The notes below the pieces were generated by a model, which made no database searches, was not told the origin of the DNA, and saw only the letters and a program-made list of their open reading frames with translations. Shown here in pieces: positions 55,445-57,163 of a stretch of 64,000 bases of DNA. The position numbers and the translations under genes are program-made. Origin of the DNA: Parcubacteria group bacterium (GTDB taxonomy: Bacteria; Patescibacteriota; Minisyncoccia; Moranbacterales; UBA2206); contig JBAZYF010000001.1 in NCBI GenBank assembly GCA_041659505.1, positions 412,933-476,932 on the forward strand, given 5' to 3'. The first letter of the stretch is position 1. Each line of letters begins with the position of its first letter.

Positions 55445-57163
55445 ATGATGAATTTAACTGAAAAGCTTGCAAATATCTGGAAAATAATCAAAAACCAGCC
55501 AAAAGATATTTGGTTTTTCTATTTGTTTTTATTGACTTTTACGCTTGGAGTAAGAAAGGTAGTATTATACTTTCCAGTCAAAAGAACTTTCAATGAGTAT
55601 GCCGGAGTGTATGTTTACGCTTCCGACATATTTCTATGTTCCACGATCCTAGTTTGGATCATGACTATATTATATAATAAAATAACAAAAACGTCAAGTA
55701 GAAATTATGCCTCAGCAGGACTTATCCACAAGATAGATCATGCAGAAAGTGTGGATAACTCGCCTACTCATAATTTATCCACAGGAGAAAAAGGGCTAAT
55801 TAAAGCCACTATTTACTATTTTCGAGCAATGCTATTAGGATTGATCATAATTTCGCTATTTGACCACTATTTGTGGGATATTTGGCAGGGGCAGGTTTTA
55901 TTTTGGTTGGTTTGTGGGATTTTAGTCGGTATTGCATCTTTGAATTGTTCCACGTGGAACAATTCAAAATACGCCAACACCAAAAAATGTTCCACGTGGA
56001 ACAATTTAAAGCAGTTTAGTATTTTTTTAATTCCCCTTGCTCTGGTCGTTTGGTCGTTTATTTCTATTGCTTGGTCTGAAAATCAGTTAATTGGTTTTTA
56101 TCGATCCGCTAGATTTCTGGAGTTATATGGATTATTTGTTTATGTTCCTTTCCGTTTTATGCCCTACTTGATTAATTGTTCCACGTGGAACAATTCTATG
56201 GTTGAGAATTCTGAAATTGTTCCACGTGGAACAATTAATATCTTTGGCGCATTTTTCCTCATCGTTATATTCTTAGGAGTGGCGCAGTCCTTAATTGGAA
56301 TCGCTCAATTTATCGTTCAGCACTCACTGGGACTGTTTTGGCTCAAGGAAAGCCTGATTGGGCAAGATATCCTTGGTGTGGCAAAGATTATCGTTAATCA
56401 TCAAGTTTTAATTCGCAGTTATGGCTTATTTCCGCACCCCAATATTCTGGGTGGTTTTTTGTTTTTTACTATTGTTGTTACTTTGCTTTATCAAAAATTG
56501 TTCCACCCTGAAGAATCTACAATTGTTCCACGTGGAACAATTGTAGATCACGGGGCAGACGCGGAACAAATAAAAGAACATGATAATGTAAAATGTTCCA
56601 CGTGGAACAATTTTAAGCAGGCGTGGAAAAATGTTCCACCTGCCTACCGGACAGGCAGGCGTGGAACAATTTGGCTGAATTCTATCAAACTTGTTTTAGT
56701 GGTTCAAGTTATTGGTTTATTCCTTTCCTTTTCTAAATCGGCCATTTTCGCTTTAGTGGTTGCGCTTGTATATATAATTGTTCCACGTGGAACAAATTTT
56801 AGAGAAAAGATTAAAAAATTGTTCCACGTGGAACAATTTAGGAATTTAGTAGTTTTAGTGGGGGTAGCTTTTTTGGTGCTGTATTTTACTGGAGTCCAGT
56901 TTTATGCCTTGTTTTTTAAATCGCTGGCAGAAAGGATGCTTTATTTGGGCATCTCAATTCAAATGATTAGCGCTAATCCTTTGATCGGCGTCGGAACCGG
57001 CCAATTCACCCTGGTTTCGGCGAGATTATTTCCCAATCTGGAAATATGGCAATATCAACCGGTGCATAATGTTTTTCTTCTGATTTGGTCAGAATGGGGG
57101 ATTGTTGGGTTGGTTTTATTTATTGTGTTTTTGTGGAAATTGTTCCACGTGGAACAATCTTGA
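55445..57163 (+). CDS. O-antigen ligase-like (Wzy_C) membrane protein, third paralog, carrying ~10 in-frame palindromic insertions
   Basis: The C-terminal Wzy_C signature ...SKSAIFALVVALVYI...PLIGVGTGQFTLVSARLFPNLEIWQYQPVHNVFLLIWSEWGIVGLVLFIVFLW matches the paralogs at 9492 and 10732. Palindrome-encoded peptides NCSTWNN, IVPRGTI and LFHVEQ interrupt its loops. Confidence 0.6.
   Translation: MMNLTEKLANIWKIIKNQPKDIWFFYLFLLTFTLGVRKVVLYFPVKRTFNEYAGVYVYASDIFLCSTILVWIMTILYNKITKTSSRNYASAGLIHKIDHAESVDNSPTHNLSTGEKGLIKATIYYFRAMLLGLIIISLFDHYLWDIWQGQVLFWLVCGILVGIASLNCSTWNNSKYANTKKCSTWNNLKQFSIFLIPLALVVWSFISIAWSENQLIGFYRSARFLELYGLFVYVPFRFMPYLINCSTWNNSMVENSEIVPRGTINIFGAFFLIVIFLGVAQSLIGIAQFIVQHSLGLFWLKESLIGQDILGVAKIIVNHQVLIRSYGLFPHPNILGGFLFFTIVVTLLYQKLFHPEESTIVPRGTIVDHGADAEQIKEHDNVKCSTWNNFKQAWKNVPPAYRTGRRGTIWLNSIKLVLVVQVIGLFLSFSKSAIFALVVALVYIIVPRGTNFREKIKKLFHVEQFRNLVVLVGVAFLVLYFTGVQFYALFFKSLAERMLYLGISIQMISANPLIGVGTGQFTLVSARLFPNLEIWQYQPVHNVFLLIWSEWGIVGLVLFIVFLWKLFHVEQS
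55942..57158. repeat. Array of ~10 copies of a perfect 22-24 bp palindrome (A)AATTGTTCCACGTGGAACAATT(T), mostly in pairs 20-45 nt apart, all inside the Wzy_C ORF
   Basis: Copies at 55942-55965, 55988-56003, 56174-56195, 56215-56236, 56520-56543, 56594-56609, 56778-56795, 56816-56839 and 57139-57158. A half copy lies at 56496-56508. One copy is split at 56631-56670 by a nested palindrome CTGCCTACCGGACAGGCAGG. None was noticed elsewhere in the window. Confidence 0.85.

Follow-up and report, generated by a model that had tools for sequence, protein, structure and literature searches.

The 64-kb window analysed here (the whole stretch of 64,000 nucleotides from a Parcubacteria group bacterium, contig JBAZYF010000001.1) carries at 55445-57163 a gene for a membrane protein of the Wzy_C / O-antigen-ligase family that contains many copies of one short palindrome, which we interpret as a probable array of the chromosomal centromere site parS. 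The assignment of this host gene is based on the open reading frame (ORF) itself, on a match of residues 417-560 to PF04932 (E=7.7e-17, 61.9 bits versus a cutoff of 31.7) and on syntenic orthologs. Its product has about 10-11 predicted hydrophobic segments, and all peptides encoded by the palindromes form hydrophilic linkers between these segments. When the protein is aligned with both of the Wzy_C paralogs present in the window, gaps open opposite the palindrome peptides, indicating that these are loop insertions, and the peptides sit in linkers that are rich in insertions and deletions. The remaining parts of the protein exhibit 42-72% identity among syntenic orthologs, with residues in the Wzy_C loop such as E496, R497, G515, G517, G519 and H541 being invariant. 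Third-codon identity at identical residues falls to about 40% in more distant orthologs, and this retention of residues while third codon positions diverge indicates that the protein is under purifying selection.

The palindrome is centred on the 16-mer TGTTCCACGTGGAACA, which occurs as nine perfect copies within 1.2 kb, every one of them inside this ORF (Table 1), while the expectation for palindrome matches in the shuffled window is 0.00. The rest of the 64-kb window contains zero extra copies when up to 2 mismatches are allowed in the 14-nt core. The perfect palindrome extends over 16-34 nt at the nine copies, with a conserved unit of 16-24 bp; its 22-mer version is AATTGTTCCACGTGGAACAATT, and the 18-mer that we used for a cross-genome scan is TTGTTCCACGTGGAACAA. 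All three reading phases are used, with four copies read as CSTWN, three as VPRGT and two as FHVEQ. Three copy pairs have a centre-to-centre spacing of 41-42 bp, and the spacers between paired copies are unrelated coding sequences without shared internal sequence. The pair formed by copies 7 and 8 is kept in most orthologs while the sequence of its spacer is not. None of the nine copies is abutted by a direct repeat of the kind expected for a target-site duplication. The initial annotation of this locus had described about ten copies of a stop-free palindrome, used in three phases, within 1.2 kb of an intact 572-codon Wzy_C gene, with the insertions falling in predicted loops. This description holds well, as there are nine perfect copies in addition to split and decayed ones, the gene is conserved with invariant loop residues, the palindrome is free of stop codons in each of the phases that are used, and the hydrophobicity prediction as well as the gaps in both paralogs place the peptides in loops. 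A second palindrome that it reported as nested within one copy is also present; it represents a separate hairpin element, rich in guanine and cytosine (GC), that is dispersed in these genomes.

Single-strand folding of the array provided nothing beyond the palindromy itself, and an Rfam scan returned three tRNAs only above threshold, with no known structured RNA at the array. Sub-threshold Rfam matches to microRNA precursors are observed at the paired palindromes 56168-56244, 55937-56012 and 56768-56850. The mir-2009 match among these scores 29-33 bits versus a gathering score of 90 and is a hairpin artefact that constitutes an annotation trap.

Table 1. Coordinates of the predicted parS array, its host gene and related features in the window.
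Feature	Position	Strand	Remarks
Host gene, Wzy_C / O-antigen-ligase family, polytopic	55445..57163	+	572 codons, intact
Putative parS copy 1	55946..55961	.	phase 0, CSTWN; perfect palindrome 55939-55968 (30 nt)
Putative parS copy 2	55988..56003	.	phase 0, CSTWN; 42 bp from copy 1
Putative parS copy 3	56177..56192	.	phase 0, CSTWN
Putative parS copy 4	56218..56233	.	phase 2, VPRGT; 41 bp from copy 3
Putative parS copy 5	56524..56539	.	phase 2, VPRGT; perfect palindrome 56515-56548 (34 nt)
Putative parS copy 6	56594..56609	.	phase 0, CSTWN
Putative parS copy 7	56779..56794	.	phase 2, VPRGT; position kept in most orthologs
Putative parS copy 8	56820..56835	.	phase 1, FHVEQ; 41 bp from copy 7
Putative parS copy 9	57141..57156	.	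phase 1, FHVEQ; final codons of gene; position kept in most orthologs
Putative decayed parS	56499..56568	.	left half 56499-56506, degenerate right half GCGGAACA 56561-56568; encloses intact copy 5
Putative remnant right half-site GTGGAAAA	56623..56630	.	GCAGGC just before; remnant of split copy
Putative split parS	56632..56668	.	TGTTCCAC, 21-nt GC-rich hairpin CTGCCTACCGGACAGGCAGGC at dyad centre, GTGGAACA
Putative isolated half-parS TGTTCCAC	55637..55644	.	5' part of Wzy_C gene
Three perfect DnaA boxes TTATCCACA	55722-55730, 55750-55758, 55775-55783	+, -, +	first hydrophilic loop of Wzy_C gene
Two Wzy_C paralogs	9411-10751, 10708-11889	+	no parS in either
dnaA	2381..3760	-	dnaN 953-2113 and yidC 4705-5490 nearby; about 52 kb from array

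Comparison of TGTTCCACGTGGAACA with known sites revealed that it corresponds to parS, the chromosomal centromere site, in its symmetric form and that it fits the parS consensus tGTTNCACGTGAAACa. Specifically, two papers give parS2 and parS3 of P. aeruginosa, as well as parS of P. putida, as exactly this sequence (PMC7022226, PMC4368675). In a full-text search for exact TGTTCCACGTGGAACA, every paper among the matches listed was a ParB/parS study. The 18-mer is present in at least 120 genome stretches in a scan that used one genome per species, and among the matches listed the hosts belong to the Bacteroidota, Acidobacteriota, Verrucomicrobiota, Pseudomonadota, Bacillota, Nitrospirota, Planctomycetota and candidate phyla radiation (CPR), with GC contents of 0.28-0.71. 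Simple arithmetic predicts about 9 occurrences by chance in 596 Gb. This excess of at least 120 cross-phylum occurrences over about 9 indicates that a lineage-specific mobile element is an inadequate explanation for the sequence. Homologs of Soj and/or Spo0J are found within 8 kb at 25 of 121 18-mer loci, often directly adjoining the site. In several unrelated phyla the 18-mer is also centred in a longer perfect palindrome of up to about 56 nt (L075 at 6110, L088 at 4028, L106 at 1588 and L073 at 3109), where parS may reside inside hairpin or terminator-like structures or where palindromes may be growing outward from parS. A cluster located outside any Wzy_C gene is found in a different class of the CPR, Candidatus Kerfeldbacteria (JACPGJ010000005.1, L011 140-1524), which has four parS in 1.4 kb. 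One of these gives KLFHVEQF in the first part of an ORF of 178 aa, and a TrmB-like gene is located 0.5 kb downstream.

The array is conserved across this lineage. The closest homologs of the Wzy_C protein are O-antigen-ligase-family proteins of Candidatus Moranbacteria/Moraniibacteriota and of other Parcubacteria/Patescibacteria, and 119 of the 120 best homologs carry peptides written by one or other of the four natural forms of parS, the median protein having 6 such peptides and the richest 13. This homolog search was word-seeded and could favour parS peptides; a control metagenome scan that was seeded on the non-parS motifs YGL[FM]PHPN and QPVHN[VI]FL had the same outcome. Across 84 metagenome loci the orthologous gene contains 414 exact sites (3.3 per kb) versus 1 in 841 kb of flanking sequence (0.001 per kb), and distant Wzy_C relatives, at about 30% identity or less, have zero sites in most cases. 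Four syntenic orthologs on long contigs share the arrangement FtsH-TilS-Gmk-S1, Wzy_C, gyrA, with three tRNA genes preceding Wzy_C in the window, and their counts of 16-mers in the gene and in the +-10 kb flanks are 11/0, 6/1, 12/0 and 3/0, respectively, with the sole flank site located 3 bp past the stop codon.

The number of sites per ortholog varies from 1 to 15 and some positions differ too. Several positions are common to most orthologs at 42-70% identity, including the VPRGT-x9-FHVEQ pair that follows helix 428-446 and the copy that ends the protein. The array has a density of about one site per 130-190 bp, with 9-15 sites in 1.2-1.6 kb, and its commonest centre-to-centre spacing across orthologs is 41 bp (31 intervals, again with unrelated spacers), with repeated 41+50-bp triplets occurring in L125. 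Sequence variation among the sites follows that known for parS. For example, in the GC-poor lineage of L126 the canonical TGTTTCACGTGAAACA occurs three times in the same gene, L125 has a mixture of variants, and the two mixed forms are also used among the orthologs. The lineages differ at position 5 (T/C) and position 12 (A/G), and these are precisely the polymorphisms of natural parS. A variant with GTGAAAC would give TGA in one phase, and such variants are seen only in the other two phases as VSRET/VPRET and FHVK.

Codon usage was analysed by picking occurrences by their peptide, with all three forward frames of whole loci scanned. The peptides CSTWN, VPRGT and FHVE are written in exact parS codons in 93-97% of cases, versus a codon identity of about 53% at ordinary identical residues, and most of the non-exact cases are one-base decayed copies such as CACATG. 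This result indicates that what is under selection is the DNA word, independently of its coding, and not the encoded peptides. That one DNA word yields three unrelated peptides also effectively rules out a peptide motif. Furthermore, 93-97% of the copies are letter-perfect despite near-saturated synonymous sites, from which we argue that most copies are under purifying selection.

The lineage also encodes proteins that could act on such sites. We searched proteins with a synthetic low-GC ParB consensus that served as a probe only, and nearly all of the named matches are proteins of the CPR that bear the annotation ParB/RepB/Spo0J family partition protein. Their sources are Candidatus Moranbacteria/Moraniibacteriota (P0158, P0181, P0189), Parcubacteria, Falkowbacteria and Patescibacteria, all with PF02195, PF17762 and PF23552, and the ParBs of the lineage keep the GERR box, ENxQR and the GKSRSxVANxLRLL helix-turn-helix. 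The parA-parB operons reside in a conserved neighbourhood composed of ATP synthase, LeuRS, GlmS, RNase T, BacA, FolD, ParA and ParB. No parS-like site with up to 2 mismatches is present in the 95 kb around the lineage parA-parB operons, with none within 10 kb of them, which indicates that parS is located away from parAB in this lineage, unlike in many other bacteria. Based on separate assemblies of the lineage, ParB and the array probably occur together in one genome. Finally, in regards to its position, the presence of dnaN, dnaA and yidC at 1-5.5 kb of the window indicates that the window, and with it the array, is origin-proximal, which is the placement of chromosomal parS; about 52 kb of a 297-kb contig separate the array from dnaA.

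As judged from sequence comparison, the palindromes are thus very probably chromosomal parS sites, and the Wzy_C gene would carry the array of parS near the origin in a genome of the Moranbacteria type (Patescibacteria/CPR). The parS element itself is already known, and we believe that a dense, conserved array embedded in coding sequence is a new and apparently undescribed variant. We found no prior description of this combination, namely a whole local array contained in a single ORF, in three phases, in the same host gene across a CPR lineage and apart from parAB. A search of the literature provided nothing tying parS or ParB to Patescibacteria, Moranbacteria or the candidate phyla radiation, with a Parcubacteria genome paper giving COG-category counts only and a Pelagibacter preprint, met in a search on O-antigen ligase, having no bearing on the subject.

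In the mechanism that we propose, ParB encoded elsewhere in the genome would nucleate as dimers on the 9-15 close-set sites, close as a cytidine triphosphate (CTP)-dependent clamp and spread over the neighbourhood. This would form a partition complex that is segregated by ParA and that would load SMC near the origin. Such a course of events is established for other ParABS systems, as reviewed in PMC7022226. Since 41 bp corresponds to about four helical turns, neighbouring ParB dimers would share one face of the DNA. Location of the array inside a gene may be a consequence of there being almost no intergenic space in these genomes, of the C/G parS variant being stop-free in all six frames, and of the loops of a polytopic protein presumably tolerating 5-8 extra residues. 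No SMC gene was found in the window, in its 3-kb extension or in the 84 array loci.

Copies of the site could multiply and move locally via duplication, gene conversion and recombination between copies, which would make transposition unnecessary. Evidence for such events between identical sites comes from the 41-bp pairs and triplets, the copy nested in a decayed one and a moved two-helix block. This block, LFDHYLWDIWQGQ (FRAxLLGLxxIxLFDHYLWDIWQGQVLFW), covers residues ~118-170 in the window (55796-55954) and is found in homologs P0002-P0120, where it is C-terminal in most homologs and located at two different internal places in closer relatives. In 72 of 113 cases the upstream junction of the block bears a parS peptide, which suggests that the block was translocated by recombination between parS copies.

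Several points weigh against the parS interpretation. A tblastn search of the window, of its 3-kb extension and of the 84 array loci with Spo0J/Soj probes detected no ParA or ParB gene. Conservation reaches 3 nt past both ends of the 16-mer, more than a canonical parS needs. Strong hairpins together with ParB roadblocks inside an expressed gene look costly. Further parS sites may also be present elsewhere in the genome, beyond the scanned window.

Other explanations of the array have to be considered. The initial annotation viewed the palindromes as an undescribed family of miniature mobile elements adapted to in-frame insertion into coding sequence, akin to Rickettsia palindromic elements (RPE) or miniature inverted-repeat transposable elements (MITE), with the paired copies as their terminal inverted repeats. 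Such an element would be congruent with copy numbers of 1-15 and positions that vary between orthologs, with peptides that are clean insertions relative to the paralogs, with the existence of nested and split copies and with a word that is stop-free in six frames. It is nevertheless extremely unlikely, as the sequence is letter for letter that of the universal parS, which is found across phyla beside parAB; as the sites are not dispersed (414 in the gene versus 1 in the flanks, and none elsewhere in the 64 kb); as target-site duplications are absent and the paired copies enclose unrelated spacers with no shared internal sequence and no abutting direct repeats; as positions are kept across orthologs of 42-70% identity; and as lineages switch between known parS variants. 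For a further proposal in that annotation, that the insertions could diversify or phase-vary the protein, no evidence of phase variation was found, and the data speak only for evolutionary rearrangement of the two-helix block next to parS copies. That the palindromes merely resemble parS and are operators of another DNA-binding protein, such as a nearby TrmB-family helix-turn-helix regulator, we regard as very unlikely. TrmB-like genes are indeed located downstream of the array in the window, at distances of 1.1 and 2.8 kb, and also near the L124 array (0.85 kb) and the Kerfeldbacteria cluster (0.5 kb), and an operator could account for the conservation beyond the 16-mer. However, a TrmB-like gene occurs within 3 kb at only 6 of 24 adequately flanked loci, which is near the background of 0.27 per 10 kb, exact identity with parS plus interchange of canonical variants would have to be coincidence, and a canonical ParB whose helix-turn-helix is intact is encoded in the lineage.

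A different possibility is that the sites are parS by descent and that the array is mostly a non-functional or self-propagating excess, with one or two sites being enough and the rest having arisen by local gene conversion in a tolerant gene. In support of this, a single parS suffices in P. aeruginosa according to PMC4368675 and the review PMC7022226, copy number varies widely, and decayed and hairpin-split copies exist. We consider this quite unlikely given that 93-97% of copies remain letter-perfect amid near-saturated synonymous sites and that several positions and the 41-bp pair spacing are kept. Finally, the repeated unit could be a functional peptide motif of the membrane protein for which the DNA palindrome is incidental, as the peptides do recur in nearly all homologs. 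The probability of this is practically negligible, because one word gives three unrelated peptides depending on phase with invariant codon usage inside it, and because in other phyla this word serves as a centromere site outside coding sequence.

A separate feature of these arrays is that GC-rich perfect hairpins split many parS copies, in both orientations, exactly at the dyad centre between CAC and GTG. The net inserts are mostly 21, 30, 36, 42 or 45 nt so that the frame is kept, and such hairpins are located at 56640-56660 in the window, L131 9557, L143 1752, L127 1793/2056, L123 10427/10675, L135 10564/11305 and others. The window hairpin CTGCCTACCGGACAGGCAGGC encodes PAYRTGR at a place where orthologs read an unbroken VPRGT. 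A short family, CCTGCC..GGCAGG, has 41 copies in 21 loci with 12 of these at parS centres, and a long family, CCGCCTCG..CGAGGCGG, has 13 copies with 6 at parS centres. Both families are also found away from parS, with the only copy in the 64-kb window being inside a parS. Given that parS accounts for <1% of the sequence that was searched, the hairpins seem to prefer the dyad centre as a target. These GC-rich hairpins look like a dispersed REP-like family. The Y1 transposase of L213, the one Y1_Tnp observed in a related genome, was considered as a mobiliser and rejected, as no such hairpins are present around it.

The first hydrophilic loop of the Wzy_C gene additionally contains three perfect DnaA boxes that lie in frame within 62 bp, with offsets of 277, 305 and 330 that are shared by the closest relatives. 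Across orthologs, perfect DnaA boxes occur at 0.32 per kb in the gene versus 0.035 per kb in the flanks (about 9-fold), and are present in 23 of 73 loci. A cluster of DnaA boxes may therefore be co-located with the centromere, 52 kb from dnaA. Directly 3' of the Wzy_C stop codon there is a GC-rich stretch (57165-57225) with the short hairpins CTCTTCTCCCTTCGGGAGAGG and GTCCGAAGGAC followed by GGTGAGGG. Related CCCTCTCC..GGAGAGGG..GGGGTGAGG sequences are found inside or beside the arrays of other loci, with a similar stretch at L170 ~11541 and L179 10850.

These features can be combined into a broader and rather unlikely reading in which the Wzy_C gene of these ultra-small cells has been co-opted as a dedicated centromere scaffold, in one sub-lineage also bearing the DnaA-box cluster, so that the array would be functional within this gene and not merely tolerated by it. 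Under this scenario transertion (coupled transcription, translation and membrane insertion) could tether the origin region to the membrane. Another option is that the loading of ParB could make expression of a cell-envelope enzyme follow the cell cycle. Recombination between identical sites could at the same time remodel the gene, as with the two-helix block, and the centre of the parS dyad could be the specific target of a GC-rich mini-hairpin element.

Two additional observations concern the wider neighbourhood. A DciA-family gene (PF05258) at L122 2126-2407 adjoins dnaN, on a contig that has the same DnaN as window 953-2113, which fits a DciA-type helicase loader beside the origin region. 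The minus strand of the window at 11973-25428 has about ten ORFs without Pfam matches around a VirB4/TraG-type P-loop ATPase (19231-21072), and this run looks like the type IV secretion-like cluster that has been reported for Patescibacteria.

Assignment of the palindromes to parS replaces a tempting new coding-compatible mobile element with a well-supported reading, in which a centromere array occupies, in three phases, the loops of a conserved protein gene across a large uncultivated lineage. This raises the questions of how the same 1.2 kb can accommodate ParB clamps, RNA polymerase and ribosomes alike, of the limit of dual coding that a gene can bear, and of where cis-acting chromosome-maintenance sites are placed in genomes that have almost no intergenic DNA. 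There are also practical consequences for annotation. The parS-coded peptides CSTWN, VPRGT and FHVEQ inflate similarity scores among Wzy_C proteins, and the palindromes give spurious RNA matches and can mislead the annotation of repeats and mobile elements in CPR genomes.

Like the Rickettsia palindromic elements (Ogata et al. 2000), the sites described here are palindromic DNA in frame within genes that adds a peptide segment without destroying the protein. Unlike RPE, they are only 16-24 bp, confined to one gene with no dispersal in unrelated genes, and identical to a known protein-binding site. RPE are about 100-150 bp, far from the unit observed here, and are dispersed in unrelated genes as well as in intergenic DNA. 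We know of no protein that binds them. The sites resemble REP/REPIN and MITE-type hairpins in being short palindromes that are sometimes arranged as inverted pairs. They differ from these in being intragenic and localised, in having no associated transposase, with no Y1 transposase present in the window, and in the absence at the nine copies of terminal inverted repeats with target-site duplications.

The closest likeness is to the chromosomal parS/ParABS systems (Lin & Grossman 1998; Livny et al. 2007), with which the array shares the same 16-bp palindrome, an origin-proximal and multi-copy arrangement that is often intragenic, and a canonical ParA-ParB in the lineage. For example, 9 of 10 parS sites in P. 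aeruginosa are in coding sequence, as given in PMC4368675, and PMC7022226 lists 22 parS for Myxococcus xanthus, 10 for B. subtilis (8 of them in the ori domain) and parS1-4 near oriC for P. aeruginosa. One partition complex formed by anything from several to two dozen sites near oriC is common to M. xanthus, B. subtilis, P. aeruginosa and, as we propose, this array. In those three species the sites are, as far as is known, spread over kilobases to hundreds of kilobases, in several genes as well as in intergenic regions. The present array differs from these clusters in having 9-15 sites in 1.2-1.6 kb of one coding sequence. It also differs from typical chromosomal parS in that all sites within at least +-10 kb are in one ORF, in three phases, with a host gene that is conserved across a CPR lineage, and in that parS is not beside parAB. 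In its density the array resembles sopC of the F plasmid, to which SopB binds and which consists of twelve non-coding 43-bp units in tandem, every unit containing a 16-bp inverted repeat. Both have dense palindromic sites for ParB-family proteins, and neighbouring sites lie about 4 helical turns apart, corresponding to 41 bp in the present array. Unlike the near-identical units of sopC, however, the sites in the Wzy_C gene are separated by unrelated coding spacers, are irregularly spaced except for the 41-bp pairs, and are of the chromosomal parS type.

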